From a virus: a stretch of 63,469 nucleotides of DNA. The stretch spans positions 1 through 63,469 of the IMG/VR virus record IMGVR_UViG_3300045988_132430; one strand, written 5' to 3'. The position numbers and the translations under genes are program-made. Shown piece after piece: positions 11,401 through 37,477 of the stretch (its first letter is position 1; the number at the start of each line of letters is the position of its first letter). The notes beneath the pieces were generated by a model. That model made no database searches. It was not told the DNA's origin and was given only the letters and a program-made list of their open reading frames with translations.

Positions 11401-14400
11401 CTTTTTCGCTTGTTTTTTGGGTTGAGTAGATTTTTTTGTTGGTACGGGTGTTATAAATGGACCATTATATTGCGGTTGGGGCTTACTCCATGGGAGGTTA
11501 TTGTTAAAAGGGAATCTACCAAATCCACCATTTGTATTAGTACCATTTCCTTTTGGTGGAGTATTTCTATCAAATATAGATTTAATCCTTACATACCATT
11601 GTGTACCAGATAGTTTTGCAAGCAAATTTGAAAGCGTACTTACTTTATTCCTTGCTATGTCTGCTTCACTGGAATCTACTTTAGGCTTCGCTTTTTTCTT
11701 GTCTAAATTATCTGAAGCATTTGACGCTTTATCATGTTCTTCTGTTGCTTTTTCTGCATCAGAAGAATCCACTTTAGGCTTTGCTTCTTTTTCTCCGAGT
11801 TCAGATACACTTGAAGATGCTTCGTTGTAACTCTTTATCAAGTCTTCAACTGACATCTTTGTAATATCATTATTCGCTTCTTGCCTTGCAGCAGTTCTGT
11901 CACTATCTTCTTGAACTTTCTTTGCATATTGCGCTTGTGCTGCCATTAACACCGCAATATTATTCAATCCAGATTTAGCATAGTCAGCAAACCCAGTTTT
12001 TAGGTAAGTAATATCAACTCCCATGTTACTCATTTGTCCTTTAAACGATGAGTACATTTGCGATAATAGTTGATTTTGCTCATTTACATTACCATTAGCT
12101 TCTTTCCATTTGGAAGCGTACGATGTTATTATTGATGAAGCTACAACAGAAGCCTGCTCTGACATATTTGAGAACTTTTTCCACTGTTCACCAACTTCAA
12201 TTAACGCTTCTTTCATTTCAGTTCCTGCTGAAAATTTAGCATGAAGCGCATCTTTATCTATCACATCATAACTGCTTGAAAAAGATTTCTGTAATTCTTT
12301 TTTTAAATCGTCTGCTTCTTTTTCAATGCTCTTGTTATAGCTTTCAAGTGCGTTTGCATTTATCCTTGCTTGTCCTTCTTGTTGAATAAGGTTTATTAGC
12401 TCATTTCTCAACCGATTTACTTGAGATAATTTGTCTTTTTCTTCGTCTATCTGAATACCATATTCATTGTATATACCGCATAGTTCTTCTATACTATCTT
12501 TGTATACTTTTGAATTTTTATCAACAGAATTGACGACTGCAAGCAAAGTGTTTGCATTCGCTTGCGTTTTTACTGCTTCTTCTCCGAATTTCTTTACTTC
12601 TTCTGTGGCTTCTTCTGTACTATCCGAGAAAGCAGAGAATATGCCTATACCGATAGAAATAGCTGTAATAGCCATTCCTATCGGATTTGATGCGAAAGCA
12701 GCTTTAAGTCCGTTAAATGCAGTCGTTAACTGCCCAGTTGCCCAAGTAAGAGCCTTCGTTGCTAACGAGTTCGCAGACTTTGATGCTGTGTCTATATTTT
12801 GTTGAACAATTTGAGCCTTTTTGGATGTTGAACTTAAATTCGTTGCTGCCGTATTTTTCGCGATGGCTGCTGCTTGTACATTAGTTGCAGCTGTTTCTTT
12901 TGTTTTAGACGCAGTTGATAGATTTTCTGCAGCTGTTTCTTTCTGTTTTATAGCTGCGGCTAATTCTGCTTCTCCTGCTGCGAAGGCTTCTGCGTCACCT
13001 TCGTTGAATGCAACCGCGATTTTTTCTTTAATAGCGTCTATTTGCTCGTTTGTTGCGTCAACGACATTCTTTGCATCTTCTACTCCAGTTGATGCTGAAT
13101 TAAAAGACATTTGTGCTTCTTCCCATGCTTTATTAGCAGAATCGAAAGCGTCTTGTGCTGCTTGTATTTCTTCTTCGTGTAATGCTTTGAGTTGATTGCG
13201 TAGTTCTTGTATTTGATTCGCTTTGTCAAGGTCTATACTTCCACCTTTAACTTGTTGCCCGAGGTCATCGTCAAGAGCAGATATTCCATTCTTTTGTTGA
13301 ATGAGTGCAATTTGTTGTTCAAGATTCGCAATTTCTTGACTTGCTGCGGCATTATTAACGGCTGCGACTGCTGCTGTTGCTGCTTTATTCATTCCCCATG
13401 CTGCTGCAATACTGATTATAATAGAACCTATTTCTTTGTAATGGTCTACCATGTCAGCAGCGAGTTCTATAGCACCACCAATAGCACCTTCTGATTTTTC
13501 TCCAATCTCGTTAAACATCATATCGATATTATCTTCAAGATTGGCGAGTTGACCCGTTAACGTCTTACTTTGCGCATCCATAAGACCGCCAAATTTACCT
13601 CCCTCATTAGTTAAGTCTTCAATAGCTTTTTGAACTTCTGGAAACCCAACTTTACCTTCTGAAACGAGGTCTTTAACTTTGCTTTCAGACACCCCAAATT
13701 GCTTTGCAAGCTCTGCAATCATAGGTATACCACGACCAGTAAATTGCATAAGGTCTTGCGCATAGAGCCTTCCTTGGCTCATTGTTGTGCCATACAGATA
13801 AATTATATCATTTAGAGGGATTGATAACCCTGCAGCAATGTCACCCAATCTAACAAGAGTGTCGTTTACTTGATTTGCTTCTAAACCATAAGCTAATAAT
13901 TGCTTCGCGCCATTCGCAACCCCTTGTAAGTCAAAAGGAGTGGAAGCTGCTGTAGTCACCATCTGTTGCATGAGTGCAGTAGCTTTCTGTTCGCTTCCAA
14001 GCATTGTATTGAAAGCCATTTCAATTTGCTGGAATTGTCCTCTAATATTCGTTACATTAGAAGCAAATTCTTGAGCTGAAAAAGCAATACCGAAACTTGC
14101 TGCAGATTTCGCAAGAGAAGCAAACATTGCATCTGCTGATGCGCCAGCATCTTGCATCTTGTGTAACGTATTCACAAAATTTCCACCATCAGAACTTGCC
14201 TTCGCGTAGCTATTCCCAAGGTTCTTAATTTCTGTAGATGTTTTAGCTGCATTCGTAGCCTGCTTAGACATTCCTTCGTCAGATTTTGCAAAATTGGACA
14301 TAATAAGCGAAACATCTGACGATATGTTTTTTGCAGCGTTGTTTGCTTGCGTTTGCATATTCATCAATGCTTGAATAAAGTCATTTGCGCTTTTCTGAAT

Positions 14401-14454
14401 GTCGTTTGCATCAATCGTGGCTCTGATGCCTATTGCGCCATCAATATCTTCCAT
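8497..14454 (-). CDS. Tail tape measure protein
   Basis: 1985-aa ORF that is Ala/Gln/Lys/Glu-rich with extended coiled-coil character and a central Lys-rich low-complexity region containing a duplicated AKPKVDSS segment. The position is typical. Confidence 0.9.
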   Translation of the reverse strand: MEDIDGAIGIRATIDANDIQKSANDFIQALMNMQTQANNAAKNISSDVSLIMSNFAKSDEGMSKQATNAAKTSTEIKNLGNSYAKASSDGGNFVNTLHKMQDAGASADAMFASLAKSAASFGIAFSAQEFASNVTNIRGQFQQIEMAFNTMLGSEQKATALMQQMVTTAASTPFDLQGVANGAKQLLAYGLEANQVNDTLVRLGDIAAGLSIPLNDIIYLYGTTMSQGRLYAQDLMQFTGRGIPMIAELAKQFGVSESKVKDLVSEGKVGFPEVQKAIEDLTNEGGKFGGLMDAQSKTLTGQLANLEDNIDMMFNEIGEKSEGAIGGAIELAADMVDHYKEIGSIIISIAAAWGMNKAATAAVAAVNNAAASQEIANLEQQIALIQQKNGISALDDDLGQQVKGGSIDLDKANQIQELRNQLKALHEEEIQAAQDAFDSANKAWEEAQMSFNSASTGVEDAKNVVDATNEQIDAIKEKIAVAFNEGDAEAFAAGEAELAAAIKQKETAAENLSTASKTKETAATNVQAAAIAKNTAATNLSSTSKKAQIVQQNIDTASKSANSLATKALTWATGQLTTAFNGLKAAFASNPIGMAITAISIGIGIFSAFSDSTEEATEEVKKFGEEAVKTQANANTLLAVVNSVDKNSKVYKDSIEELCGIYNEYGIQIDEEKDKLSQVNRLRNELINLIQQEGQARINANALESYNKSIEKEADDLKKELQKSFSSSYDVIDKDALHAKFSAGTEMKEALIEVGEQWKKFSNMSEQASVVASSIITSYASKWKEANGNVNEQNQLLSQMYSSFKGQMSNMGVDITYLKTGFADYAKSGLNNIAVLMAAQAQYAKKVQEDSDRTAARQEANNDITKMSVEDLIKSYNEASSSVSELGEKEAKPKVDSSDAEKATEEHDKASNASDNLDKKKAKPKVDSSEADIARNKVSTLSNLLAKLSGTQWYVRIKSIFDRNTPPKGNGTNTNGGFGRFPFNNNLPWSKPQPQYNGPFITPVPTKKSTQPKKQAKKKQTIKTNKHSQKDYLNQIEEKYTDQINNAHSNDAIDNIVKDLKAKVNSADDRTELRKMLVRVKAKAIKKQKKLNKSAGNETGGGKKSGKKGTTRTKSAAEINSDRISIQKDAKEKEANEIAKMQQEITDDSIKYMDESLKKEIKEIDNNKTKEEKALEDWLNAIIKSRKSVSEKLWKAGNHKKGETWLNTKDGKKTDAQWREDVLSDSKISAVYNKRNKQIVDNSSKDKATAIKEHFAEYDNLSDKEKQIKKLRSDIQFLEQELQKTTNETSKNEIDKLRQNAQAQLDWVSQSKDAWNEYYQKYGTFLEKRAALEEKFLHDTQGLDKNSPEYKSYEKEYEKNSKALEFEEIKKQLNWEDVFGDLSRLGKSALADLQKQLETLIQNDKNLSVESIKTINEAINKVRAEQAKKGSLIGNMFSSFRDLKSKKNAADKANEQVKNVAGGSIWKRYKEAENSSDTEKKAEIRNEQVYDPVSKKLITFGELLERAAKATKDYTEAEKTANETTKSVGSGFKTLSTMGKDVSGMLEKFGVSMPDGLTQVFDGFGSIGSAFEGFDLTKIGSFLDVGNYVHAITGVFGGVADVFSGFVSLFGHGSGEKAYKQELAHYEKLSGIWSDLIDKKKEYIDMSFGNEAKKAIAEVEALYKAEEKSIKNVTRTFLSKRSFNAHSQAYRANEAINNAGGFNKWSRLAGVNISRIEDLYSKNYTYDQLVKLKGADNGEFWASLGTEMQDYLDKLIECKKGTEDFQQEALEKLTGVKFDDMYSNFMSALTDMSKSADDWVSDFKDKIRSAIIENMMGEKVKSWMKDYTERYQAAMKAGNGTISEAQKQQFIDEAKEMSNAFYEERKQITENVGLGKSSTESSKSGGYATASEESIEELSGRALATNEALYSIRNQQLIDAATLVSINDGLQVIVTIENKRNAYYDESIEIQRTSVSHLAAIEKNTNELYTMNAKLTKIERNTRNM

Positions 14455-14463: not shown

Positions 14464-14679
14464 TTACATTAGAGAAGCAAAGAAGCTATTACCATTGTCA
14501 TTCTTAGCGTAGCTCTTGCGCTTTGGTTTTACTTGATTTGTGTTATTATTGCTTGGTTGCTCATCTTCATTATCTTCATCTAAAGGCTTGATTGAAGGGA
14601 TTGCTGCATTCAGCAAGAGCAAATTGAGATAGCTGCGTTTAAAAACAACCTCATCGTAGCTCATGCGGAAATACTTCAT
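14464..14679 (-). CDS. T segment of the tail assembly chaperone GT (now separated from G by the nested element)
   Basis: 71-aa ORF directly upstream of TMP. Its frame stays open upstream to the element junction at 14741. See the findings. Confidence 0.55.
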   Translation of the reverse strand: MKYFRMSYDEVVFKRSYLNLLLLNAAIPSIKPLDEDNEDEQPSNNNTNQVKPKRKSYAKNDNGNSFFASLM

Positions 14680-14741
14680 TACTCCTCCGATGAACCCCCA
14701 TGGACTTGTGCTGCGCGAGTATTCGTCGTCGTCTGTTTTGC

Positions 14742-14754
14742 ACCGCGCAGGAAA
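14742..14754. repeat. Left copy of the 13-bp att core of the nested element
   Basis: ACCGCGCAGGAAA, identical to 23119-23131. Confidence 0.8.
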
Positions 14755-14921
14755 TAAATATGTATTTTGTTTTGTTTCTGTATCAGTTAGTTATGTTTCA
14801 ATTTGCTTCTACTTGCACAACATTTGCACAACTTATTCCGCGTTGTTTTTCGTTTTAAGCGTGTTTTATTCGTTTTGTGGGTACTTGTAAGCCTCAACCG
14901 CTAAAACTCGCCTAAATCGTT

Positions 14922-15227
14922 TTATTTCGCTTTTATGGTCTTAAGCATTCCCTTTGCTTCGCATATCTCGCCCCATAGCCATGCGCCATTGGTTTGTATA
15001 TATGTAAGTAGTTCGGTAATGCTTTGCAATGCTTTGTAAAGCGTTTCTTTATCGCCTTGCGGTACTTCTGACTTGCCAACTATGTACGCAAGTGAAACAA
15101 GTGTACAAATGTCTTTTTGTCGGTTTATTACTAAAATATCTTCGCAGTTATCAAGGTTTTCGCAAAGTTCCTTGATGTCTTCCTTTGATGGTGTTTCTTT
15201 TGTTTGTTGGTTTGTTGTTGTATTCAT
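14922..15227 (-). CDS. Hypothetical protein (nested element)
   Basis: 101-aa ORF, last gene of a three-gene leftward operon. Confidence 0.55.
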   Translation of the reverse strand: MNTTTNQQTKETPSKEDIKELCENLDNCEDILVINRQKDICTLVSLAYIVGKSEVPQGDKETLYKALQSITELLTYIQTNGAWLWGEICEAKGMLKTIKAK

Positions 15228-15231
15228 TGTC

Positions 15232-15471
15232 TTATTTGTTTTTATTGTTGTTGTCTGTTTGAATTGTTGAGGCTTGCAAGTGCCAAACCTTGTAACGCGT
15301 TTTGTTGCCCTTGCGCCACTCGCTTTTTATTAAATATCCCTTTGCTCTTAGGTAAGAAATATTTTTGTGAGGGTCTGCCACGTTGGCAAGTTTAACAAGG
15401 TCTATAGTACCATAATAGCCCCCACCTTGCAAGACTTTTAAAACCCTCGTGTTGCCGTTAGTTGCTTTCAT
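15232..15471 (-). CDS. Hypothetical small protein, possibly winged-helix
   Basis: 79-aa basic ORF (YLRAKGYLIKSEWRKGNKTRYKVW) that overlaps the upstream ORF by 14 nt. Confidence 0.45.
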   Translation of the reverse strand: MKATNGNTRVLKVLQGGGYYGTIDLVKLANVADPHKNISYLRAKGYLIKSEWRKGNKTRYKVWHLQASTIQTDNNNKNK

Positions 15472-15841
15472 TGGCTTGTATTTCGTTGGTAATATATTGG
15501 AGTGCCTTTTTTGTGTTGTCTGTTACTCGCTTCGCATATTGTAAAAACGTTTGTATTGGGCACTTTGCGCTATCCATAAAGGCAAAGCAAAAAACATTGT
15601 CGCTACAAAGTGAATGTGCCTTTTGTATGTTTGCTTTATGTCCTTTGTTCGTGTTCGCTTGCCTTAATGCGTGCAAAATTCGTGTGGCTTCTGTGTTGTG
15701 CTCTTGTGCTTTGTGCATGTCGCGCAAGAAGTTGAAAAGGTGCTTTTGTGGTTCTGCCATTAGTGAAAGCACGTTTGCACTCTCTTGTAGGTGCTTTTGC
15801 AGCCTTGCAAGTGTTTCGTTTGTGGTTTGTGTTACTATCAT
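15458..15841 (-). CDS. Hypothetical protein (nested element)
   Basis: 127-aa helical ORF preceded by the AAGCCTCAGC/GTTGAGGCTC hairpin at 15861-15890. Confidence 0.55.
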   Translation of the reverse strand: MIVTQTTNETLARLQKHLQESANVLSLMAEPQKHLFNFLRDMHKAQEHNTEATRILHALRQANTNKGHKANIQKAHSLCSDNVFCFAFMDSAKCPIQTFLQYAKRVTDNTKKALQYITNEIQANESN

Positions 15842-16091
15842 TTCTTTTGTGGTTTGTGGTAAGCCTCAGCCGTGCAAGGTGTTGAGGCTCGCCAAAGTTA
15901 TTGTATGTATGTTTTTATCTGTTTTGTTTCGTTTTGCGGTGCAAATATAACACTAAAACAAAACCAAACAAAACAAAAGTACTTTTTTCTTGTTATTATG
16001 TTGCATTTCTTCTTGTTTTGCTCTTTTGTTATTTATATTCTGTTTGTTCTTGTTTGTTATTATATTACTTGCAAATCTCCCTTTTGCTCAC

Positions 16092-16099
16092 TACCTTTG
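16092..16099 (+). promoter_or_regulatory. -7 box TACCTTTG for the first XRE regulator
   Basis: CTACCTTTGCAAT lies 25 nt upstream of the ATG at 16124. Confidence 0.45.
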
Positions 16100-16123
16100 C
16101 AATATCACTATAATAAAACAAAC

Positions 16124-16393
16124 ATGGATATAAAAGGCACAATCAAAAAACACGGCTTTACACTTGAAAGGGTAGCTAATGAGTTGGGAGTATCTAAAGG
16201 CTCTTTTTCGACCGCAACAAAAGGCAATCCCACTATAAACACTTTGCGCAAAATTGCAAACGTGTTGGGGTGTTCTGTTACTGAATTTTTCGAAGACGAA
16301 ACGAAAGAACAAAGTAGTACTTTTGTTTGTCCTCGTTGTGGTGCTCCCTTGCATATCAGCGTAAAGGAGGAAAAGCACGAAAGCAAAGAGTAA
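16124..16393 (+). CDS. XRE-family HTH regulator with a C-terminal zinc-ribbon-like CxxC
   Basis: MDIKGTIKKHGFTLERVANELGVSKGSFS... with CPRCG near the C-terminus. The tracked ORF (15872-) extends through AT-rich promoter DNA, so the internal ATG was chosen. Confidence 0.7.
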   Translation: MDIKGTIKKHGFTLERVANELGVSKGSFSTATKGNPTINTLRKIANVLGCSVTEFFEDETKEQSSTFVCPRCGAPLHISVKEEKHESKE

Positions 16394-16443
16394 CTTTGTG
16401 CCCCCACTTGTTAACCTTGTGGGGGTTCTGCTGCTTTACTGCC

Positions 16444-16683
16444 TTACCATACATAAAAGGTAACCTTTAAGCCTCTACGCAATTTACAAATAACTTTATC
16501 CGCCTTGTACATTGCCTTTTTGGCACGTGTTACCAACTTGTTAAACAAGCCAATACCTACCAACTTTACAAGACCGCTAACACCTACCAAAGTATTTAAT
16601 TTCTTGCCATCAGCATTTTTGCCGTAAACCTTAATTTTAAAAAGGTCGTTAACTTGTTTCTTTGTATATTGCATTTGTGCCAT
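16444..16683 (-). CDS. Hypothetical small basic protein between the two XRE genes
   Basis: 79-aa ORF with no recognised motif. Confidence 0.4.
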   Translation of the reverse strand: MAQMQYTKKQVNDLFKIKVYGKNADGKKLNTLVGVSGLVKLVGIGLFNKLVTRAKKAMYKADKVICKLRRGLKVTFYVW

Positions 16684-16833
16684 GTCGAAAAGGTTTTAGA
16701 ATTATCTTTTTATGTTTGTTTTCGTCTGCAAATATACATAGCACGATAATACAAACCAAATAAAAACAGAATAAAATATACTTTTCATGTTGCTTTTCTT
16801 GCTTAAATACTCTTTTTGTGTTGTTTTTGTGCG

Positions 16834-16841
16834 TATCTTTG
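16834..16841 (+). promoter_or_regulatory. -7 box TATCTTTG for the second XRE regulator
   Basis: GCGTATCTTTGCAAAG lies 30 nt upstream of the ATG at 16871. Confidence 0.45.
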
Positions 16842-16870
16842 CAAAGTAAACAAATAAACATTCTAAGTAT

Positions 16871-17155
16871 ATGGATATAAGATTAAAAGAACTTTGCAAG
16901 CAAAAAGGCATAACACAAAAAGAACTTGCAAATACTTTGGGAGTTACTGAAATAACGCTTACACGCGTAAATTCGGGTAATTGTTCCCTTTCACTATTAG
17001 AACGTATTGCAACTGCCTTGAATGTTCCAATACAAGAACTATTTAACCCACCATCAGAAAACAAAATCACGCTTATTTGCCCACACTGCAAGGGGGTTGT
17101 AAATGTTTCGCTTTCGGTTCATGGAGAGCAAAGCGAAGAAACAAATAAAGAATGA
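16871..17155 (+). CDS. XRE-family HTH regulator with C-terminal CxxC (paralog of 16124-16393)
   Basis: MDIRLKELCKQKGITQKELANTLGVTEITLTRVNSG... with CPHCKG. The architecture matches the first copy. Confidence 0.7.
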   Translation: MDIRLKELCKQKGITQKELANTLGVTEITLTRVNSGNCSLSLLERIATALNVPIQELFNPPSENKITLICPHCKGVVNVSLSVHGEQSEETNKE

Positions 17156-17197
17156 TTTTTTTGTATGTGGTCTGTAGCCTCAACAAATTAAAAGTAC

Positions 17198-17300
17198 TAC
17201 CTTTGCACTCGTTAAGTACTCCGTTGTTTTGACTTAAAAAAGTTGTTTTGTATTTTGCACAAGTCGTTCTAATTGGTTCGGCTTGTGCAAATTGTTTTTT
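17198..17300 (+). ncRNA. Candidate small RNA unit (promoter box plus about 85 nt plus a strong terminator), or simply the terminator of the XRE gene
   Basis: TACCTTTG at 17198-17205. A 10-bp stem TTTGCACAAG/CTTGTGCAAA (17254-17291) is followed by TTGTTTTTT. Confidence 0.3.
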
Positions 17301-17388
17301 CCTCCTTGTTCCAACTGCACACTAAAAAAACGCTGCAAACCATCAAAAAACGGCTTACAGCGTCCAAACTATTAAAAATGAAAGATAT

Positions 17389-17598
17389 TTAGTTACTAAA
17401 TTCTATAGAAAAGGGTTTTATTTCTTCTTTGCACCTCCTTACAAGCAAATGAGCATACCAATTATGAAATTTATTGTACCTTGTTATATATTCCCTTGCT
17501 TTGCGCTCGCTTGTAAACATTGCACTTAGTTTGTCGGCTTCGCCCTTGGGGGTGCTTACCTTTGCGAGGACAAAGTAAACATTTACACACTTGCTCAT
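17389..17598 (-). CDS. Hypothetical protein (nested element)
   Basis: 69-aa ORF with a 4-nt overlap with the upstream ORF. Confidence 0.5.
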   Translation of the reverse strand: MSKCVNVYFVLAKVSTPKGEADKLSAMFTSERKAREYITRYNKFHNWYAHLLVRRCKEEIKPFSIEFSN

Positions 17599-17924
17599 TC
17601 CAAAAGGATTTTTTTTTCTTCCTCTGTCAAATTATCTATGATTTCTTTTTCTTCTTTGGTCGTTACTACAGAGATTTTTAAATCTTCTTCCCCATTCTTG
17701 CAAAGTTTTTCTGTTTCTTCTTCTGTCAAATTATCTATGATTTCTTTTTCTTCTTTGGTCGTTACTACAAAGATGTTTAAATCTTCTTCCATATTCTTGA
17801 TAAAAGATTTGTTTATCATCTTTATTTTTCCGTTTATGAATTGAAAAACGCGCGAACATGTTTTTTTTGGTTTTTCTCCTTTTGCTACTTGTAGAATGAT
17901 TTTTATATTTGCGTCCTTGCTCAT
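17595..17924 (-). CDS. Hypothetical acidic protein with a 33-aa tandem duplication
   Basis: The sequence EDL(N/K)I(F/S)VVTTKEEKEIIDNLTEEE occurs twice, reflecting a 99-bp period (17624 and 17723). Confidence 0.55.
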   Translation of the reverse strand: MSKDANIKIILQVAKGEKPKKTCSRVFQFINGKIKMINKSFIKNMEEDLNIFVVTTKEEKEIIDNLTEEETEKLCKNGEEDLKISVVTTKEEKEIIDNLTEEEKKILLE

Positions 17925-18274
17925 TGTTCACTTTCTGTTTGTTGTTTTTCTTCTTGTAGTTGCATCACCTTTAAAGCAATTTTTTGTACTGCTTCCTCGG
18001 GTGCTTCTTTTAGCAACTTTTCAAGTGCTGCGTATTCGGTTTCTATTTTCGCCTGTGCCGTTATGCTTGCTTGCTTGGGTATTGCATAGCCTAACAAGTT
18101 TATATAAGATTTTACGCGCTCGCTTGGCTCGAGTTCGTTTAGGTCGCTCATTACTTGCGCTTGCATACCTTGTAAAAGCATTTTAACCCATTCCGCTAAA
18201 TCAGCATTCCTTTTATTTCGTGTTCCCTTGGGTCTGCCCTTGGGGTTTCCTACTTCGCCTTTTCTAAATACCAT
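17921..18274 (-). CDS. DUF5681-like protein (GNPxGRPKG motif)
   Basis: N-terminus MVFRKGEVGNPKGRPKGTRNKRN. A promoter box (TATCTTTG on the minus strand) lies at about 18303-18312. Confidence 0.45.
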   Translation of the reverse strand: MVFRKGEVGNPKGRPKGTRNKRNADLAEWVKMLLQGMQAQVMSDLNELEPSERVKSYINLLGYAIPKQASITAQAKIETEYAALEKLLKEAPEEAVQKIALKVMQLQEEKQQTESEQ

Positions 18275-18322
18275 AATTGTGTTATATTTGTTTATTATAC
18301 TTGCAAAGATAGTGCTTTATTG

Positions 18323-19051
18323 TTATATATTACTTCTTTGTTTCTCTTGAAATTGTTTGAACTCATCAGACAAAGAAAAATTTTGCTTTGTTTGGTGTAG
18401 TGGCTGCTTTGTTCTCTCGTCTTCTTTCAGCCAATAAAGACAAAAGTTTTGTATTTCCTTTAGTGTGGCTTTTGTGCAAAATAAGTCCATCACGTATTGG
18501 CAAAATCTTGGAGCGTTTTTGGCTGCTGCTTCTGTATGGTATTGTATTTTTCCAAATGGTGTTGAGGCTTCAAAGATTTTGCTTTCTTGTGTCGTTGGGG
18601 TGCTGCTGCTTGTAGTGCTATTTTTATTACATTGTGTAGTACTATTTTTATTACATTGTGTAGTACTATTTTTATTACCTTGTGTTGTACTATTTTTATT
18701 ACCTTGTGTTGTACTATTTTTATTACCTTGTGTTGTACTAAATTTATTACCTTGTGTTGTACTAAATTTATTACTAATAAGGAATGTATAAGTACTTGAT
18801 TTGCTTTTTGTTGTGGAGTATTTTATAATACCTTTTTTGCTTAGTGTTTCGCGTATTTTCAAAAGGTGCGTTTTACAAGTTGTTCCATACCTTTTGCAAA
18901 CCTCTTCAAGAGTGGCTACAAATTGCCCTTTCTCGTTCGCTCTCTCTTGGTATAAACCAATTAGAGCAAATAAAAGTCTTGTTTCGCTCGAAGTGTACGC
19001 GCTTGCTTTGTCGTTCTTTAGAATGGTTTTTAAAATCTTTGTTATATCCAT
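18323..19051 (-). CDS. Winged-helix Rep/initiator-like protein with an internal STTQGNK tandem repeat
   Basis: N-terminal wHTH-like region (ATLEEVCKRYGTTCKTHLLKIRETLSKKGII), then seven 8-aa repeats. An iteron array lies nearby. Confidence 0.45.
   Translation of the reverse strand: MDITKILKTILKNDKASAYTSSETRLLFALIGLYQERANEKGQFVATLEEVCKRYGTTCKTHLLKIRETLSKKGIIKYSTTKSKSSTYTFLISNKFSTTQGNKFSTTQGNKNSTTQGNKNSTTQGNKNSTTQCNKNSTTQCNKNSTTSSSTPTTQESKIFEASTPFGKIQYHTEAAAKNAPRFCQYVMDLFCTKATLKEIQNFCLYWLKEDERTKQPLHQTKQNFSLSDEFKQFQEKQRSNI
18613..18780 (-). repeat. 24-bp x 7 in-frame tandem repeat (encodes STTQ(G/C)NK(F/N))
   Basis: Contiguous units TAGTACTATTTTTATTAC(A/C)TTGTG with a few substitutions. Confidence 0.9.
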
Positions 19052-19456
19052 TGTTTTGCCTTTTAAGTTTGTTGTTATTCGTTTTGTGGGCGTTTTGCCG
19101 TGCTTGTGGGTACTTGTTAAGCCTCAGCCGTAAAACTCGCTAAAATCGCAAATTTGCCAAAAATAACGGCTTTTGTTGTTGAGGCTTCGGAATGGTCTTG
19201 CACTCTACAAAGTTTGTACTAACTTATAGTGCAAGGCTATTCCGTTTGTGTTGTAAACTCTCCCACAATCGGATAAATAGGAGAGAGCAAAGCGACCGAC
19301 CCCCATAAACCCCCTATAAATTTATTTCTTGTTTCTTGTTGAGGCTTTAAATAGCTTAAATTTAGTGCTTTGTTTTCGCTCTAAGGGCGTTTTGTGCGTT
19401 TTGTGGTATCTTGTAAGCCTCAGCACAAAATAACGGCTTAAAACGCAAATTTTAAG
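19052..19456. other. 405-bp structured non-coding region (repeat units plus long hairpins)
   Basis: Contains two AAGCCTCAGC and two GTTGAGGCTT copies, a 16-bp stem 19189-19204/19228-19243 with two G-U pairs, and a 6-bp stem 19258-19263/19280-19285. Confidence 0.6.
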
Positions 19457-19888
19457 CTATTGCCTAAAAAGTAGCCCCATATCTACAGAAAAGGGGGTAA
19501 TACAAAATTCTACCCTTGGGCGTTCCTTGTCTGTTCGCTTTTCCGCATTTATCTTGCAGCAAAAGCAATCATTTGTAATTGCTCCTACATATTGCAAACA
19601 ATCTAAAAGCGTTTTTAATGCGTTGTCTAAATCGTTTTTTGTAGTTGCAAAATACACTACTACATTCAAGGCAAAAGGTGTGTTTATCTGTTTACCCTTG
19701 TATATTTTGCATTGCTTTATAAAACTTTGTTCATACCTCCTTAGTTTGTCGGTTTTGATTATTCGCCTTTTGCCGTCCTTGTCGGGCACTGCTTGGTAGT
19801 TGTTAGCCTTGCCAATTACTTGCCCCCAAATTATCTCTGTTTCCATCGTGAAGCGTTTTTGTGTTGTTGTTGTTGAAATTCTTCGCAC
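19457..19888 (-). CDS. rusA: RusA-like Holliday junction resolvase
   Basis: 143 aa. The pattern ...NDLDNALKTLLDCLQYVGAITNDCFC... and the length fit the RusA family. Confidence 0.5.
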   Translation of the reverse strand: MRRISTTTTQKRFTMETEIIWGQVIGKANNYQAVPDKDGKRRIIKTDKLRRYEQSFIKQCKIYKGKQINTPFALNVVVYFATTKNDLDNALKTLLDCLQYVGAITNDCFCCKINAEKRTDKERPRVEFCITPFSVDMGLLFRQ

Positions 19889-19997
19889 GTGCGAACACCA
19901 ACAACAGCAACAAAAATAACGAAGTATGAGTTATTTTTTTCTGTTGTTGGGTTATATATCATATTTCATATATCATATTTCATAAAGGTTTGCTTTC

Positions 19998-20072
19998 GGT
20001 TTCCCTTTGGTTTCCCTTTGGTTTTCCTTTGGTTTCCCTTTGGTTTCCCTTTGGTTTTCCTTTGGTTTTTTT
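19998..20072. repeat. Iteron-like array: 11-bp GGTTT(C/T)CCTTT x 6 plus a partial unit (33-bp super-repeat x 2)
   Basis: Read directly from the sequence. It is preceded by an AT-rich tandem TATATCATATTTCA x 2 (about 19955-19985). Confidence 0.85.
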
Positions 20073-20121
20073 ATTAGTTGTTATTTGTTGATATTCAAGC
20101 AAAAAAAGTTGTTTTTTTATT

Positions 20122-20679
20122 TTACCTATACCGCCCTTTTTTCCACTCGTTTTTTCTGTTTTGTAGTTGTATTCTTTCCCAATCTAAAAAGTGTGCCTTT
20201 ATATCGTTTTCGCTTGTATGTCGTTTCCCTTTAAATTGGCATTCGTTGAAAAAGTTATCAAAATCTTCATCGCTCCTATAGCATGCCATAGTATCACCAC
20301 CAAAGGGGGAACAATCAAGCCAAGACGATAGAAAATTTTCATCAGTTTTCAGCCGTTCAAAAATAGCCTTTTCTTCATCGTGCGAAAGGTATTTTTTTTC
20401 CTCTGTTTTCGCTTCTTCCTTTTCTTTCGGTCTACCTCCTTTTTTGCCGTTTGCTATACATTTTTCGTATCGTGTTTTACCCTCATCAAGCATATTTTTT
20501 AAAGCGTGAAAGACAATATTTTTAATTACGTCTTTTTGGTCTGGTGTTTTGCCTTCTCTTACGTAATAGTAAAGCATTTTTAAACATTGCCATGCTTCAG
20601 CCTCATTGGTTGTTGCAACGCTGTCTAACACGTTTAAAACTTGTTCGGATATTATTAAATTAGCCTTTTTATCTTCCAT
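20122..20679 (-). CDS. Replication-organizer-like protein (DUF6291-like N-terminus, GGRPK motif)
   Basis: 185 aa. The N-terminal region resembles that of the outer phage protein 53486-54421 (both carry a KGGRP(K/R)K motif). Confidence 0.4.
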   Translation of the reverse strand: MEDKKANLIISEQVLNVLDSVATTNEAEAWQCLKMLYYYVREGKTPDQKDVIKNIVFHALKNMLDEGKTRYEKCIANGKKGGRPKEKEEAKTEEKKYLSHDEEKAIFERLKTDENFLSSWLDCSPFGGDTMACYRSDEDFDNFFNECQFKGKRHTSENDIKAHFLDWERIQLQNRKNEWKKGRYR

Positions 20680-20681
20680 GC

Positions 20682-20975
20682 TTAAACGTTGCTTTTGGTG
20701 TTACTACTCGTTTGGTGCTTTCTTCTGTTTGCTCTTCTTCGGTCGCTCCTCCGTTTCTCGCTCTTTTGCTTTTCGATGATAGGGCGCAAAACCTTTGTGT
20801 AATATTCGGCTTGCTCCTCGTCTAAATCTCCTTTTTGGGGTTCTACTCCCTTAAATCCATAATCGCAAAAGGCTTTCAAAAGTTGGAATGCTCTTGCACC
20901 TCCGAAAAGGTTCATTTCTACCGCCAAATAAGGGGGTACTTTTATTTTGTCAAGTAATACGTTATCTTTTTCCAT
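20682..20975 (-). CDS. Hypothetical protein with an Arg-rich C-terminus
   Basis: 97-aa ORF with the tail KSEKRRSDRRRANRRKHQ. Confidence 0.5.
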   Translation of the reverse strand: MEKDNVLLDKIKVPPYLAVEMNLFGGARAFQLLKAFCDYGFKGVEPQKGDLDEEQAEYYTKVLRPIIEKQKSEKRRSDRRRANRRKHQTSSNTKSNV

Positions 20976-21180
20976 TGTTTTTTTGTTAGTGGTTTGTTGG
21001 TTTGAGCCTCAACACTTCAAAAAGTGCTTTATTTGCCTATTTGCTTTTAGTTTTAGCGTGCTTTGTGTGCTCGGTGGTAGTTTGTACACCTTACACACAA
21101 AAACGCTCTTAGAACAAATAAAAAGCCCTTTTAGGTGTTGAGGCTATAAAGTTGGTAAGTTATTTGCCATTGTTGAGGCT

Positions 21181-21486
21181 TCAAAGTGCGTTTTGTCTTT
21201 CGTTCAAAAGTGCATTTATATCGCTTTGTTTGTAGTAGTTCTTGTTACCTAATTTTATAGGCTTTAAGTACCCACGCTTAGCCCATACCCAAAGAGAAGA
21301 TTTTTGCACGTGAAAAATAGCCCTTACTTCCTCAGTTGATAGCAAATTTTCTTTTGTTGTACTCTTGTTTTCGTTCGCTTTAAGTTGTTCCATAAATTCA
21401 GCCATCATAGAACTAAACACACTTTGCAAATCTTCTTTTGTTATCATAAAGATTTGGCTTGCGTTTGTAATTGTTTTAGCATCCAT
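21181..21486 (-). CDS. Excisionase-like HTH (MerR/HTH_17-type) protein
   Basis: LSTEEVRAIFHVQKSSLWVWAKRGYLKPIKLGNKNYYKQSDINALL. It lies immediately downstream of the integrase. A -7 box TATATTTG sits at 21543-21550 on the minus strand. Confidence 0.6.
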   Translation of the reverse strand: MDAKTITNASQIFMITKEDLQSVFSSMMAEFMEQLKANENKSTTKENLLSTEEVRAIFHVQKSSLWVWAKRGYLKPIKLGNKNYYKQSDINALLNERQNAL

Positions 21487-21611
21487 ATTTGTAAATATTT
21501 TTCTATTTGTTTTACTTCGTTTATTTTGTTTCGTTTTCGTTGCAAATATACTGATTTATATTGCTTTTCTATATCTTTTGTATGTTTTTTTATTGTAAAT
21601 ATATATCTTAT

Positions 21612-22943
21612 TTATAATAGCCTTATAACTTCGCTTTTTATCTCATCGTCTATTGCCCTATATCGTGCAAAAGCGGTGCTATTTTGTGCGTGCCCACTCA
21701 TTGAGGCAATTAAATTTGGGTCTTTTACTTGTTTGTATAATAAGCCAATAAATGTGCGCCTTGCCATGTGTGTGCTAACTACTTCGCAAAGTTGCTTTTG
21801 TTCCTCCTTTCGTGTTATTGGGTTTAATACTTGTACTTGTCGCGTGAAGCCACAAAGGGCAAAAAGTTTCTTTAGCTTTCTGTTAATCCTTTCAGTGCTG
21901 CCACAATTCGGTAAAAGGTTTGCACCCTCTTTGTACTTCTCAATGATACGCAAAGCAACTGAATGTAACGGAATGCGTAAAACGCGCCCACGCTTTGAAA
22001 TGGTCTTTTGTGGTATGTATTCCAAATAGTTGCCTATTATGTTATGTTTGGTAAGCCTCAACAAATCACTAATACGGCAACCGCAAAAACACTGAAATAT
22101 AAATAAATCGCGTATCTTCGCAAGTTCGGGGAAATCTTGCAAATCGTATTCCGTTAGCGTGTCGCGTTCCTCCCTTGTAAGGTAGTAGGGAGTGCCGTAT
22201 ATCTCGGGACTTATCTTTATACTCGCCATAGGGTTTTTGTTTATTAGTCCTTTTCTTTCGGCAAAGTTTAAAACGGCTCTAAATTTTTTCATGTACCCTA
22301 TTATGGTGTTTATACTCCTTTGTTTTGGTGGTCTGCCTTTCCTTGTAAGGTCTTCAAATGGTTTGCTTTCGTATATTTCGTGGTGCTTTGCTACTTCTTC
22401 TTGTTCGTGCTTCAAAAAGTCTTCAAAGTTGGCAATATCATTTGCCGTAAGTGTGCGAATATCCGCAAAGTGTGTTGTTTTGCCTTGTGCTTGCTCGTTC
22501 ATTTTTAAGTGCTTAAAAATAGTTCTAAGTGCTTTGTAATACTCTTTGCTCCTTTTGCTCATTTCGTTTGCTTTTACGTATTGTTTTATAAGTTCGCAAA
22601 TGTCGTATATATTACCGCCATCCGTGCAAAGTTCACAAAATACTTCACCATTCATTGCCCTTGTAAGGTCGTGCGAGTTTTTTATAAAATCTTTGTTTTG
22701 TTCGTACACCTCCAAAAGTCGGTCTTTTGTATTTTGTATTTCGTTGTTTGTCGTTCGTCTGTATGTGTTATTGCAAATCTTTCTTGTACTTATTTCTCCC
22801 TTTTTAGAGTCCCAAAGAATAACATTTACAGAAATAGTACTTTTATAAAATAGTTGTACGTTTCGCCCATCAGACAAACGGAAACGAACAAAAGCGGTAT
22901 CTTTGCCCTTGGTCGCTCTTATTAGTGCTTTAATTGTTGCCAT
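21612..22943 (-). CDS. int: Tyrosine recombinase/integrase of the nested element
   Basis: 443 aa. The N-terminal arm-binding-like domain reads MATIKALIRATKGKDTAFVRFRL. The C-terminus carries ARRTF...GHAQNSTAFARY (R, HxxR and Y catalytic pattern). Confidence 0.85.
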   Translation of the reverse strand: MATIKALIRATKGKDTAFVRFRLSDGRNVQLFYKSTISVNVILWDSKKGEISTRKICNNTYRRTTNNEIQNTKDRLLEVYEQNKDFIKNSHDLTRAMNGEVFCELCTDGGNIYDICELIKQYVKANEMSKRSKEYYKALRTIFKHLKMNEQAQGKTTHFADIRTLTANDIANFEDFLKHEQEEVAKHHEIYESKPFEDLTRKGRPPKQRSINTIIGYMKKFRAVLNFAERKGLINKNPMASIKISPEIYGTPYYLTREERDTLTEYDLQDFPELAKIRDLFIFQCFCGCRISDLLRLTKHNIIGNYLEYIPQKTISKRGRVLRIPLHSVALRIIEKYKEGANLLPNCGSTERINRKLKKLFALCGFTRQVQVLNPITRKEEQKQLCEVVSTHMARRTFIGLLYKQVKDPNLIASMSGHAQNSTAFARYRAIDDEIKSEVIRLL

Positions 22944-23115
22944 ATTAGTATAACTTTTTGCCGTTGTGCAAGTTCTTTATTTTTGCACAACACAAACAGA
23001 AACAAAGCAAAAAACGAAAGAAACAAGTTAAATATACCTTTCTTTGTTTTTGCGCTGAAAGTGTTATAAATCATTCCTTTTGCTTTGCTTTGTTCTGTTT
23101 TAGTTTAACTTTGTT

Positions 23116-23493
23116 CTAACCGCGCAGGAAAGTCATAGATTGAAAAAAAAAGGATGCATTGAAACTTTGTGCGCAGAACGTAATAACTTCGTTATAGCGC
23201 GTCATTGTGGTTTTCTTAGCAATGTACCATCCGAATAAAAATCTTGCAATAGAGCTGCGGAAAATGGCTTTTATGACAACCTTTTGCAATACTCTAATAT
23301 CCTTGTGCATAGATAACATCTTTTCGATTCCATTAAATGTGCCCTGAATATCCAGTTGCTCACAAGTGTTTACAAGTTCTCCAATCTCCCAAATTTGGGC
23401 GAGCGTTAGAGGTTTTATGTGTACGGGTAACAAGCCAAACCTAATCCAAGTACCCTTTTCACTAAATGTTTCTTCTGTGCTTATCTTCGTCAT
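23116..23493 (-). CDS. Tail assembly chaperone G, C-terminally truncated by the nested element
   Basis: 125-aa ORF between the major tail protein and (after excision) TMP. It ends at a TAG supplied by the element and contains a T9 slippery run. Confidence 0.6.
   Translation of the reverse strand: MTKISTEETFSEKGTWIRFGLLPVHIKPLTLAQIWEIGELVNTCEQLDIQGTFNGIEKMLSMHKDIRVLQKVVIKAIFRSSIARFLFGWYIAKKTTMTRYNEVITFCAQSFNASFFFQSMTFLRG
23119..23131. repeat. Right copy of the 13-bp att core of the nested element
   Basis: ACCGCGCAGGAAA, identical to 14742-14754. Confidence 0.8.
23143..23151 (-). promoter_or_regulatory. Putative -1 programmed frameshift slippery run (T9 on the coding strand)
   Basis: The coding strand reads GCA TCC TTT TTT TTT CAA. 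The -1 frame is open from here across the reconstructed junction into ORF 14464-14679. Confidence 0.5.
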
Positions 23494-23580: not shown

Positions 23581-24216
23581 TTACGCTTTCGCTACTTTAG
23601 AATGGTCATGTCCCGTATTGCTTGATGTAACACCTGCATCGGGCTTCCATCGAGTAGAAGGCATTTCATCACCCGTAAGAACATCAAATACCGCTTGCTT
23701 TGTACATTCGATATTGATGTTAGGGAAACCACTCTTACCGATAGTACCAGCCTTAGTTACAACGAGTTTCATGTTCGCCCACTCGAAAATCTTTGAGGGG
23801 AACTCATCGGTACTCTTTGTTTGAATCTGGACGGCATGATTCTGCAACTTAAATTTAGGGTCTTCCTCAATATAGCCGTCTGCACCCTCCTTGTAGCCGA
23901 AGAAAAACATTGCAGCTTCCTTACTCATATCGTATACCTGAACAGTAAATCCCTCTGTACCTGCGTCACTCTGCAACGTAGCGTAATAGGTATCGCTATC
24001 CTCAATCTCGATATTGTTTGTCGAAGGTGCTTGGTCGTTAAAGCTAAGAGAATCCTTAACGATTGCTTTTAGTCTAAATTCCTCCCACTTAGAGGGAAAT
24101 GCAGGGGTAGCCGTTAGCGTATCACCGTCAAGGTTACCACCCTTTACGTTAGGTTTGTCAACAAGTGGAGCAAACTTAATATGCTCAATACCGTATGCAC
24201 CAGTTTTATTTGCCAT
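23581..24216 (-). CDS. Major tail protein
   Basis: 211-aa ORF after the tail-completion genes and before the chaperone. The call is by synteny. Confidence 0.6.
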   Translation of the reverse strand: MANKTGAYGIEHIKFAPLVDKPNVKGGNLDGDTLTATPAFPSKWEEFRLKAIVKDSLSFNDQAPSTNNIEIEDSDTYYATLQSDAGTEGFTVQVYDMSKEAAMFFFGYKEGADGYIEEDPKFKLQNHAVQIQTKSTDEFPSKIFEWANMKLVVTKAGTIGKSGFPNINIECTKQAVFDVLTGDEMPSTRWKPDAGVTSSNTGHDHSKVAKA

Positions 24217-35673: not shown

Positions 35674-36930
35674 TTACATTAAATCGATAAATTCGTCAGC
35701 GTCGAGTCCGTTGCTGTTTTGACCTAATAACTTGTCAAGAACAACATAGCGTATGCCGTCCAAGCAGTGATTATAGGCATCGATAGGCTCATTTAACCAC
35801 TTGCCTTCTTTGTTTTGTCTGTATGTGTAATTACGGAACTCTTTCAGCACGTTTGTACTTCTCCTCGTTACACACATCTTCATTTCCTGCATCTTCTGAA
35901 TACCTGCCATGATTGAACCTGAGAATTTCCGCACGGGGTGTATATCAAGTCCAGCGTTGGCTATTTCGTCAATTAGGCGAGGGTCTGCGCTCTCTGAGAT
36001 AATCTCTACGTTTTCACCGCATTCTTTATTTGCATCCTTCAGTACGCGTATTATGTCAGCAGCAAGCATGTGCGTTTGATAGCATACTTCGTCAATCCAC
36101 AGTGTACCATCATTGATGTACACATCCACGATAGCAGTTGGGTCGTTGGTGTAACCGAAGTCCATACCTCTGTAGTGGTGTTTCTTATGCCAACGTGGAA
36201 TCTCGTCTATTTCCTCGACATTCTCAAATATCAAGCCTTCTACCATTGCTTGCAGCCCAAGACCATAAATGCGCCACAGCGAAGGATTCTTGTGTTTAAG
36301 GCTTTCGATTTCATCAATAACCTTTTGCTCCAAGAATGGATTATCTTTGTAAGTAGTGATAAAATGATAAGTCTTAGGCTCTTTATTCAGTGTGCATAGC
36401 CAGTGGTCATCCGTAAAAGAGGGGTTGTAGTCAATAATAGAGAACTTAGTAGTACGCATTTGCAGCTGCTGCCATTCAATAAACTTTAGCTCGTTACCTT
36501 CATTAACGTACAAAATCTGACGCTTACGACCGCGCAACTTTTGCTCGTTATCGCATGAGAAAAACTCCACCCATGAACCATTTTGGAAGGTGCAAATCAA
36601 TTCTGATTTATTGAACTTGCATTCTCCCCAAATGTTCATATCTTGCATTACTTTTATAAAGTCACGGAGAACAGAACCTTTGAGCGAGGGTAGAGTAGCA
36701 CGAACAACTGACACTGTCGTATGTGGGTTATTCAAGCAATATGCACACAACCAAATAATGGTGTTGTATGTCTTTGATGAACGGCTACTTCCTTGTTCGC
36801 TAACTGTCGTATAACCGCGAATGTAGGCTTTGTTAATCTCTGAAAAGATTCTTGTTGTCTGTATTTTATTCTTCCTCTTCTTCGTCATTATCGTCCGTAT
36901 CAACTTGTTCTCTACTATCAATGATTTCAA
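35674..36930 (-). CDS. terL: Terminase large subunit
   Basis: 418 aa with a Walker-A-like GSSRSSKT. It is adjacent to the portal gene. The true start may be Met15 (36888). Confidence 0.8.
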   Translation of the reverse strand: MKSLIVENKLIRTIMTKKRKNKIQTTRIFSEINKAYIRGYTTVSEQGSSRSSKTYNTIIWLCAYCLNNPHTTVSVVRATLPSLKGSVLRDFIKVMQDMNIWGECKFNKSELICTFQNGSWVEFFSCDNEQKLRGRKRQILYVNEGNELKFIEWQQLQMRTTKFSIIDYNPSFTDDHWLCTLNKEPKTYHFITTYKDNPFLEQKVIDEIESLKHKNPSLWRIYGLGLQAMVEGLIFENVEEIDEIPRWHKKHHYRGMDFGYTNDPTAIVDVYINDGTLWIDEVCYQTHMLAADIIRVLKDANKECGENVEIISESADPRLIDEIANAGLDIHPVRKFSGSIMAGIQKMQEMKMCVTRRSTNVLKEFRNYTYRQNKEGKWLNEPIDAYNHCLDGIRYVVLDKLLGQNSNGLDADEFIDLM

Positions 36931-37477
36931 CCATTAAAGGCTCGCGAGCAATATCCTTTCCATTGGTAGTAACGTCAAGTTTCTTCGGAACATAAAGTCC
37001 TAACAACTTCCTACGCTCTATAAGCATCTTATTGATAAATTCAAGGTAGCGTATATCGCCATGACAATTCACATTCTCAGACATCTGTTCCATCTTTACG
37101 GTCACGACATTCTCACCGCCTGATTCCTCAGAAGGAACACCAACTTGCCTACTTTGCTTCTTGTCATAGTCAAGCTTCGATTTTTCCCACGCAGCCCACG
37201 CTTCCTTAATCAACTCGTCAATACGCTGCAATTCAAGTTGGATATTCGCGTCAATACTCTTTATCCTCGTTTCTTGCCATTCTGCTAATAGGCGATTAAC
37301 GTCTTTGTGTACAGTCTGTAAAGAGTACGTTGGTAAGTCAAGGCGAGCCATGACTTCCTCACGTATCTCACGGAACGTATACCCACGCTTGTACAACTTG
37401 CTTATAATATCCATTCGTACATATTGCGCGTGTCGGTAATCGCACATCTTCATCTTTTTTTTTATTAGGTTAGCCAT
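36866..37477 (-). CDS. Terminase small subunit (putative)
   Basis: 203 aa with an N-terminal HTH-like segment RGYTFREIREEV...SLQTVHKDVNRLL and an acidic tail. It is upstream of and overlaps TerL. Confidence 0.55.
   Translation of the reverse strand: MANLIKKKMKMCDYRHAQYVRMDIISKLYKRGYTFREIREEVMARLDLPTYSLQTVHKDVNRLLAEWQETRIKSIDANIQLELQRIDELIKEAWAAWEKSKLDYDKKQSRQVGVPSEESGGENVVTVKMEQMSENVNCHGDIRYLEFINKMLIERRKLLGLYVPKKLDVTTNGKDIAREPLMVEIIDSREQVDTDDNDEEEEE

Follow-up and report, generated by a model that had tools for sequence, protein, structure and literature searches.

A satellite-like integrative element splits a predicted G/GT-type recoding site in a Bacteroidales prophage

The viral record IMGVR_UViG_3300045988_132430 of IMG/VR, analysed here over its whole length of 63,469 nucleotides (the window), carries in its late operon a gene for a putative tail assembly chaperone, G, which is separated from its predicted −1 frame extension, T, by a nested integrative element of 8,377 bp. 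In the model that we favour, with a probability of about 0.8, a run of nine thymines (T9) in G is a G/GT-type recoding site that has been split by an excisable, satellite-like element, which would thereby gate the synthesis of the frameshift product GT. Observed directly are the arrangement of the sequence, a run and a −1 frame that are both conserved, sites in the empty and the occupied state, and free circles of related elements. The configuration itself has been known since 2023 (PMC10111431); new here is a recurrent, excising satellite-like element that is found in Bacteroidales phages and lies at a G/GT overlap.

A T9 run in the interrupted overlap of G and T

The features on which the argument turns are listed here in window coordinates.

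23143..23151, minus strand: T9 slippery run (A9 on the plus strand), with zero-frame codons TCC TTT TTT TTT CAA and the in-phase heptamer T_TTT_TTT
23116..23493, minus strand: truncated tail assembly chaperone gene G', 125 amino acids, whose TAG stop is formed by the first three bases of the insert
23119..23131, no strand assigned: G-proximal copy of the attachment (att) core, TTTCCTGCGCGGT on the minus strand, starting 11 nt after the T9 run
14755..23118, minus strand: body of the nested satellite-like integrative element, with a core-to-core length of 8,377 bp and genes oriented like the late genes of the phage
14742..14754, no strand assigned: T-proximal copy of the att core
14464..14741, minus strand: T part of GT, the −1 frame from the att core to its stop, including the open reading frame (ORF) 14464-14679 and showing a coding-type pattern of codon substitution

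The run provides an in-phase X_XXY_YYZ heptamer, T_TTT_TTT, inside the G/T overlap, as had been claimed in an earlier note made from the letters of this DNA alone. The insertion lies in the same overlap, 11–24 nt downstream of the run, and is flanked by a 13-nt direct repeat, TTTCCTGCGCGGT on the minus strand, whose copies at 23119-23131 and 14742-14754 are spaced by 8,377 bp. In the integrated state, the zero frame of G' ends in A S F F F Q S M T F L R G before its stop, and the −1 frame, read from the last T of the run, gives SIYDFPARLEQS and then meets a TAA inside the element after 12 codons, just as the earlier note had it. When the insert and one copy of the repeat are deleted in silico, G is reconstructed as a protein of 145 amino acids and the −1 frame remains open for 100 codons (SIYDFPARCKTDDDEYSRSTSPWGFIGGVMKYFRMSYDE...NDNGNSFFASLM and a stop, including ...SPWGFIGGVMKYFRMSYDE...FFASLM before that stop). 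It traverses ORF 14464-14679 and ends at 14464, with its stop 10 nt before the ATG of the tape measure gene, which agrees with the continuous frame that the earlier note had translated by hand. The peptide predicted across the G–T junction is ...NASFFFSIYDFPAR... / …SFNASFFFSIYDFPAR….

Runs of nine T or nine A are depleted in the window, with 3 present compared with 15.2 ± 6.4 expected from dinucleotide shuffles, and the T9 run is thus not a by-product of base composition. The only other homopolymers of 9 nt, at 37455-37463 and 17609-17617, are both A9 on the coding strand. The former is found 14–22 nt into the ORF 37477..36866, shortly before the large terminase gene, and the latter at the 3' end of an element ORF (17595-17924).

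The run and the −1 frame are conserved in relatives

Scanning viral contigs with the reconstructed G yielded 13 uninterrupted loci (L001-L013), all of which possess the T9 run, an overlapping −1 ORF and a strongly conserved −1 peptide. The run reads (T/C)CC TTT TTT TTT CA(A/G) in 13 of 13, and the −1 ORF spans 101–116 codons and ends just before the tape measure gene; intact homologues of G comprise 142–146 amino acids. In L001, where the site is empty, the protein is 99% identical over residues 1-145 of the reconstructed G, which confirms both the chaperone C-terminus obtained by deletion in silico and the empty site. In L003-L013 the −1 frame opens just 6 nt upstream of the run, such that the shift must happen at the run and no other site is possible. 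T9 is invariant in 22 related sequences, and among all relatives examined, interrupted or not, two T7 variants are the only exceptions.

The evolution of codons was compared among 15 distinct sequences, taking the synonymous share of differing codons as the measure.

G-only region: zero frame 0.57
G/T overlap: −1 frame 0.61 versus zero frame 0.38
T-only region: −1 frame 0.59, other two frames 0.07 and 0.06

This pattern indicates that the −1 frame is translated from the run onward, and purifying selection on it begins at the run, well upstream of the internal ATG (MKYFRM) used by gene callers. The G/GT arrangement that the earlier note had described is therefore upheld by the relatives, through the conserved T9, the −1 ORF and its coding pattern, as well as by the location before the tape measure gene. 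Neither of the two outcomes that the earlier note had named as contrary evidence, a missing −1 ORF or a divergent chaperone C-terminus, was seen in the intact relatives. On these sequence grounds we regard the run as a true recoding site of the G/GT type.

T9 is retained in more distant relatives as well, namely L107 (59% identical) and L106 (54% identical), and in L106 the run stands in another codon phase (ACT TTT TTT TTA, encoding T F F L, versus CCC TTT TTT TTT CAA, encoding P F F F Q). Among the contigs of a GC-richer sister lineage, four that are near-identical have T9 (L109-L112; T9 contigs come from SRR19415655, SRR19415667 and SRR19415674) and two have T7 (L015 and L108; SRR19416397 and SRR19416399). 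The T7 form places G and T in one ORF of 205 amino acids, an in-frame GT, and reflects either a real length polymorphism, giving a GT-only phage, or an effect of the library or assembly.

Ribosomal or transcriptional slippage

The same run could also act at the level of RNA polymerase, where slippage on the nine-T tract would produce some mRNAs with U10 and, from these, a GT of the same sequence. We give transcriptional slippage odds somewhat below even as the main or a contributing route. All nine Ts are kept, although a ribosomal heptamer requires seven; L106 retains T9 despite its different codon phase and residues; the run varies between T7 and T9 among near-identical contigs; and a downstream stimulatory structure was searched for and not found. 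Against this, T_TTT_TTT is a legitimate in-phase X_XXY_YYZ heptamer in every relative as well, stimulators are commonly not needed at lambda-type G/GT sites, and the two mechanisms can coexist. A/T runs of about 9 nt slip productively in type III secretion genes of Shigella, such as mxiE, and in Thermus dnaX (PMC5009743). The slippage cassettes of Shigella mxiE and spa13, Thermus dnaX and insertion sequence (IS) elements (PMC5009743) resemble the G/T overlap in having a homopolymer of about 9 nt at the frame junction and a C-terminally extended product, but differ in that the run described here is also a valid ribosomal slippery heptamer and is known from DNA sequence alone. One stem in the window, CTGCGCG...CGCGCAG, was considered as a stimulator and rejected, since it is not conserved in relatives with the CTAAGAGG version of the att core.

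Insertion would withhold GT and spare G

The insert supplies a TAG directly after the core in the zero frame, and in L022 the corresponding stop comes two codons later. G' retains every conserved residue and loses a poorly conserved tail of 20 residues that varies in length, whereas the integrated −1 product loses the entire T domain. As judged from these sequences, the insertion probably costs only GT and not the function of G. The earlier note had made both full-length G and GT dependent on precise excision; this stands clearly for GT, but is slightly too strong for G, because G' keeps every conserved residue.

According to the model, most ribosomes would read the zero frame and produce G, and a minority would shift to the −1 frame at T9 and produce GT, either by tandem tRNA slippage on T_TTT_TTT or on transcripts to which RNA polymerase has added one U, with the frame for the T domain of GT extending to where the tape measure gene begins. 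The 8,377-bp element would have entered the G/T overlap by site-specific recombination, catalysed by a heterology-tolerant integrase of the IntN1/IntDOT type. While it is integrated, the zero frame would give the 125-residue G' by way of the TAG, the −1 frame would stop at the TAA after 12 codons with no T domain, and 8.4 kb together with a terminator-like hairpin would lie between G on one side and T, the tape measure gene and the genes of the distal tail on the other. On precise excision, the overlap would be rebuilt and GT restored, and the element would in this way control in cis whether the tails of its helper are completed, as has been suggested for helper-embedded phage-inducible chromosomal islands (HE-PICIs). 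Since lambda tail assembly needs both G and GT, in a balanced ratio (PMC5009743), tail assembly should require excision. That tail production waits for excision is what we infer from lambda G/GT biology and the HE-PICI precedent, and our view of how efficiently and by which mechanism the frame shifts, of what G' does, of the reliance of the element on this phage for its packaging and of when excision occurs is likewise inferred.

Related elements occupy the same site and excise

Insertions at the same site and in the same orientation are present in L016, from a Hadza gut metagenome (integrase 84% identical), and in L022, L023 and L025 (59%), where the phages are related and the insertions directly follow a G' of 126–128 amino acids. 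Both boundaries are present in L022, with the T frame and the tape measure gene following the element. The contig of L016 runs from the occupied site into the attP path, which implies that both forms are present in one sample. In addition, L014 (97% identity) is permuted across the attP junction, and three contigs are circular by terminal overlap, namely L017 (141 nt), L113 (55 nt) and L114 (55 nt). The circles L113 (8,355 bp) and L114 (6,302 bp) are 91–96% identical to the window element over most aligned blocks, with one block of L113 at 87%. Over aligned blocks, nucleotide identity to the window element amounts to 87–96% for L014, L113 and L114 and to 69–86% for L017, and the free circles span 6.3–9.5 kb. 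For the window element, the attB predicted after excision contains …GACTTTCCTGCGCGGTGCAAAAC… and the attP …TTTATTTCCTGCGCGGTTAGAAC…. The empty attB sites of L001-L013, the attP junctions and the circles establish that excision is real for the element family, as seen in close relatives and not in the window copy itself.

A WYL_2-domain gene is present in the relatives L016 and L017 (17882-18187 and 1026-1331, respectively) and in the chromosomal relative L018 (17235-17567), but not in the window element, and L114 is a deletion variant of 6.3 kb; the family thus varies in its accessory region. Viral contigs scanned with the integrase protein of the element gave no relative, and those scanned with its right arm plus core gave no match, so that the window is itself absent from that set of contigs. 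An integrase alignment scan of species-representative genomes returned only Bacteroidales integrases of 32–49% identity and no close relative of the element.

Heterology of the att core

The core exists in two main versions, CTGCGCGG and CTAAGAGG, with CTACGCGG in L107 and CTAAAAGG in L106. A 3-nt cluster within it switches in three phage backgrounds that otherwise differ at 11–15 of about 650 nt, and each version is found among the attP copies. Read in the G frame, either one yields L-R-G; in the T frame, the result is P-A-R or P-K-R. The 3-nt ‘coupling’ footprint would have to suit two overlapping readings (L-R-G; P-A/K-R). In L022 the attL core, CCTAAGAGGA, differs from the attR core, CCTGCGCGGA, which indicates that the integrase recombines across a heterologous overlap, and enzymes of the IntDOT/IntN1 type are known to recombine across such sequences. 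These data are most simply read as repeated entry of elements into these phages and exit from them, with the overlap swapped each time.

The likeness to IntN1 of NBU1 and IntDOT of CTnDOT comprises the domain architecture, an identity of about 39% to proteins labelled intN1 and the tolerance of non-identical ‘coupling’ sequences, and the integrase relatives are all from Bacteroidales. NBU and CTn elements, however, carry mobilisation or conjugation genes and target tRNA genes or chromosomal sites, whereas the element described here has no such genes and targets a phage late gene.

Gene content of the nested element

The body of the element encodes the following.

21612..22943, minus strand: tyrosine integrase of 443 amino acids, composed of Phage_int_SAM_5 and Phage_integrase domains and sharing about 39% identity with proteins labelled intN1 (P0104)
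21181..21486, minus strand: HTH_17 protein, excisionase- or AlpA-like
19457..20975, minus strand: replication/recombination module with two DUF6291 genes (20682-20975 and 20122-20679), an iteron-like array and RusA (19457-19888)
18323-19051, minus strand: DnaD-like protein (weak match) with 24-nt tandem repeats in seven copies
17921-18274, minus strand: DUF5681 protein
17328..17365, minus strand (that of the late genes): terminator-like hairpin with a 17-bp stem and a T tract, a pattern match only
15872..17155, plus strand: two divergent Cro/CI-type helix-turn-helix regulators (16871-17155 and the C-terminal part of 15872-16393)

Several small ORFs are also present. With an integrase and an excision regulator at one end, repressors, a replication module and no complete virion module, the content of the element is satellite-like. 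Its gene annotation includes no structural, conjugation or mobilisation genes, and PADLOC gave no hit for its small ORFs, which thus hold no evident defence cargo.

The iteron-like array consists of 7–8 copies of 11 nt at about 19976-20080, between the RusA and DUF6291 genes, and the 24-nt repeat, in seven copies at 18587-18802 inside ORF 18323-19051, encodes STTQGNKN peptide repeats. These two repeat regions are likely to form the replication origin/initiator region of the element. From its position and pattern, the hairpin at 17328..17365 may exert polarity on T, the tape measure gene and the genes of the distal tail. Apart from this one long hairpin, scans for sigma-70 promoters and terminators were at chance level, with a tool that lacks Bacteroidales promoters. 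An element-specific motif, AAGCCTCA(A/G)C, with its complement GTTGAGGCTT, occurs in about 10 copies in the intergenic regions of the element between 14847 and 22091, often as inverted pairs (for example at 14873-14899, 15263-15280, 15845-15871, 18558-18575, 19175-19192, 19335-19352, 19399-19425, 21005-21024, 21134-21186 and 22037-22063), and may represent an operator or a terminator.

The prophage and its late operon

The window is a complete prophage running from attL to attR, as its ends, 1-49 and 63421-63469, are identical over 49 nt, and it represents a temperate siphovirus of a Bacteroidales host integrated in a tRNA gene. ARAGORN found no complete tRNA in the window. Its other principal features are as follows.

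1..49 (= 63421-63469), no strand assigned: outer prophage att repeat, a perfect terminal direct repeat that corresponds to the 3' half of a minus-strand tRNA
62034-63272: phage integrase, 197 nt from the right end of the window
25781-26890, minus strand: major capsid protein
23581..24216, minus strand: putative major tail protein of 211 amino acids directly upstream of G, assigned by synteny (phrog_6767, function unknown)
8497..14454, minus strand: tape measure protein gene, 1,985 amino acids, starting 10 nt past the T stop (phrog_9959, E 7e-194)

Further phage genes include a CI-like S24 repressor, RecT, the large terminase and the portal. On the minus strand, the late genes run from the capsid through DUF6706 and HK97-gp10-like head–tail proteins, the 211-residue protein and G to the insert and, beyond it, the T frame, the tape measure gene and the gene for a distal tail protein. 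G therefore sits between the putative major tail gene, assigned by position, and the tape measure gene, which is the canonical location of G/GT. A blastn search with the structural region of the window against GenBank phages gave no matches.

A head-morphogenesis protein of 785 amino acids (SPP1 gp7-like, 31858-34215) also matches a PHROG of Bxa-like ADP-ribosyltransferases and the glutamine deamidase toxin domain PF15644, and may, by these matches, be a virion-delivered effector. DUF6291-domain proteins, presumed to be replication-associated, occur in both the phage (53486-54421) and the element (20122-20975), and blastp between the two detected no similarity.

Weighing the model

The programmed −1 frameshift of lambda G/GT is reportedly conserved across tailed phages (Levin et al. 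1993; Xu, Hendrix & Duda 2004) and is reviewed in PMC5009743. The locus in the window shares with lambda a gene with two overlapping frames between the major tail and tape measure genes, an in-phase X_XXY_YYZ heptamer near the 3' end of G, a T domain reached via the shift only and a T stop that adjoins the start of the tape measure gene. In contrast to lambda, where the site is G GGA AAG, the slippery tract is a nine-T homopolymer, which is what makes transcriptional slippage an alternative; moreover, the proteins have no sequence homology to catalogued chaperone families, and the overlap is split by a mobile element. The chaperone label for G accordingly rests on synteny and the recoding architecture and not on homology.

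Several observations weigh against the favoured model. G matches no chaperone family in Pfam, PHROG or NCBIfam, and family searches with G, T and GT were empty or insignificant. The predicted structure of G is of low confidence (predicted local distance difference test, pLDDT, 62); a fold search of this model against the PDB gave no match, and the matches in BFVD are weak (E at least 0.03, with the low-confidence model), although many of them are labelled tail assembly chaperone, including the GT of N15. No conserved RNA structure was found 3' of the run, where the window folds like its shuffles (z = 0.01), and the alignment consensus structure downstream of the run is weak, with a single covarying pair. 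The element and the phage have no DNA similarity and no visible common pac or cos site, and no small terminase or capsid-remodelling gene is recognisable in the element. One of its relatives (L018, integrase 78% identical) is integrated in a bacterial chromosome, between genes, where the core is again TTTTCCTAAGAGG. This relative (9367-18960 of its contig) lies between a PBP1a gene and genes for DUF5715 and PhoH proteins, within GC-rich palindromic repeats, a configuration found at 16 similar places, and the phage gene is therefore not the sole target. The prophage could be an inactivated dead end, and the whole analysis is of DNA sequence.

Some of these points would equally be expected if a general chromosomal element of Bacteroidales had hit the gene by accident, leaving a defective prophage with no helper–satellite relationship and no regulatory role. 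We consider such an event unlikely. It would fit the chromosomal relative with its identical core and 16 similar places, the missing packaging and capsid-related genes, the lack of DNA similarity to the phage and the length of the composite, which exceeds that of the phage alone by about 15%. It fits poorly with three element lineages (integrases 100, 84 and 59% identical) at exactly the same site and in the same orientation in three diverged phages, with the early zero-frame stop that the elements always bring and with the assembly of free circles from several independent samples. In addition, the dimorphism of the core recurs across backgrounds while keeping both frames coding, which points to repeated entry and exit, and the chromosomal copies of HE-PICIs have themselves been read as off-target events (PMC10111431).

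It is far less probable that no recoding takes place and that T is an independent small protein initiated at its own ATG (MKYFRM..., ORF 14464-14679), possibly with stop–start coupling (TAATG or TGATG), the T9 run being incidental. The ATG in the −1 frame is conserved, and the G stop overlaps it in the window, L001-L004 and L013, but in L005-L012 this stop precedes the ATG by 9 nt and the overlap is thus not conserved. The 28 codons of the −1 frame before the ATG (DDEYSRSTSPWGFIGG) are the best-conserved part and evolve as coding sequence (synonymous share 0.61 versus 0.38 for the zero frame), T9 is invariant while adjacent third codon positions vary, and two contigs carry G and T as a single ORF. 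Independent initiation of T was rejected because the codons before the ATG evolve as coding and the stop–ATG overlap is not conserved.

An assembly chimera of the phage with an unrelated contig, for which nothing specific speaks beyond the fact that metagenome assemblies can be chimeric and that L016 ends through the attP path, is the least probable of all and was rejected, as the 13-nt direct repeat that flanks the insert is perfect, this architecture was assembled independently in other samples and with other assemblers (L016, L022, L023 and L025), and matching empty sites and circles exist.

Relation to helper-embedded satellites and split genes

The closest precedent for an element that gates GT from within the G/T overlap is provided by the HE-PICIs, of which Tommasini, Mageeney & Williams (2023) catalogued 491 in Enterobacteriaceae, at 14 sites in nine lambda-cognate genes (PMC10111431). 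Experiments with HE-PICIs confirmed that the composite excises first and the satellite afterwards, a single case lies in a cognate of lambda T (Xpo1.16.T_DUF4035_17, in a Xenorhabdus prophage), and chromosomal copies are interpreted as off-target events (PMC10111431). As with HE-PICIs (PMC10111431), the element in the window is small, bears an integrase, lacks a full set of virion genes and lies co-oriented inside a late gene of a prophage; its attP provides no replacement for the disrupted gene, related copies are chromosomal, and the late gene is restored by excision of the satellite only. Unlike HE-PICIs, it belongs to a Bacteroidales and not an Enterobacteriaceae host, its integrase is of the Bacteroides SAM_5/IntN1 type and not of the P4/PICI clade, it encodes an HTH_17 protein in place of Phage_AlpA, and it has no primase, Bro-N or capsid genes. 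The site is also distinct, being in the G/T overlap straight after the shift site, and is used by several lineages that have free circles and exchange a heterologous crossover with the phage. By integrase domain type, host and the HTH_17 protein, the element would thus be an analogue of the HE-PICI family and not a member of it.

Genes that are split and then rebuilt at a defined time are also known from cellular hosts, as with the skin element in sigK of B. subtilis and phi10403S in comK of Listeria. These share with the window the rebuilding, by precise excision, of a gene split by an element, but the gene interrupted here belongs to the phage and not to the cell, and what is cut off is a recoding-dependent frame and not a conventional ORF. 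The concept of regulated gene integrity, or active lysogeny, is cited in PMC10111431.

The literature searched, a limited full-text collection, describes no satellites or helper-embedded elements in Bacteroidota. To our knowledge, nearly all catalogued satellites, helper-embedded ones included, come from Proteobacteria and Firmicutes. We tentatively suggest, with slightly more doubt than confidence, that these elements are the first recognised satellites of Bacteroidales phages, a helper-embedded family of 6–10 kb that would have arrived independently at an HE-PICI-like strategy, with an integrase of the IntN1/IntDOT type, a target in the G/GT overlap such that only the frameshift product is withheld, and an entry–exit cycle that swaps a 3-nt footprint between CTGCGCGG and CTAAGAGG.

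The frameshift alone is long-established biology, in a gene family that had not been annotated before and has no Pfam or PHROG match, and T9 as its recoding site would mend the annotation of a common group of Bacteroidales phages of the human gut. The wider interest lies in a lineage of gut Bacteroidales phages in which a small integrative element recurs at precisely the same position, where it would disable only the frameshift-dependent chaperone. If the helper relationship is true, these phages would offer a tractable system for how a parasite times the tail assembly of its helper, the helper-embedded strategy would have evolved convergently with a different integrase family, and viral contigs from gut metagenomes with a seemingly broken tail module would be explained.

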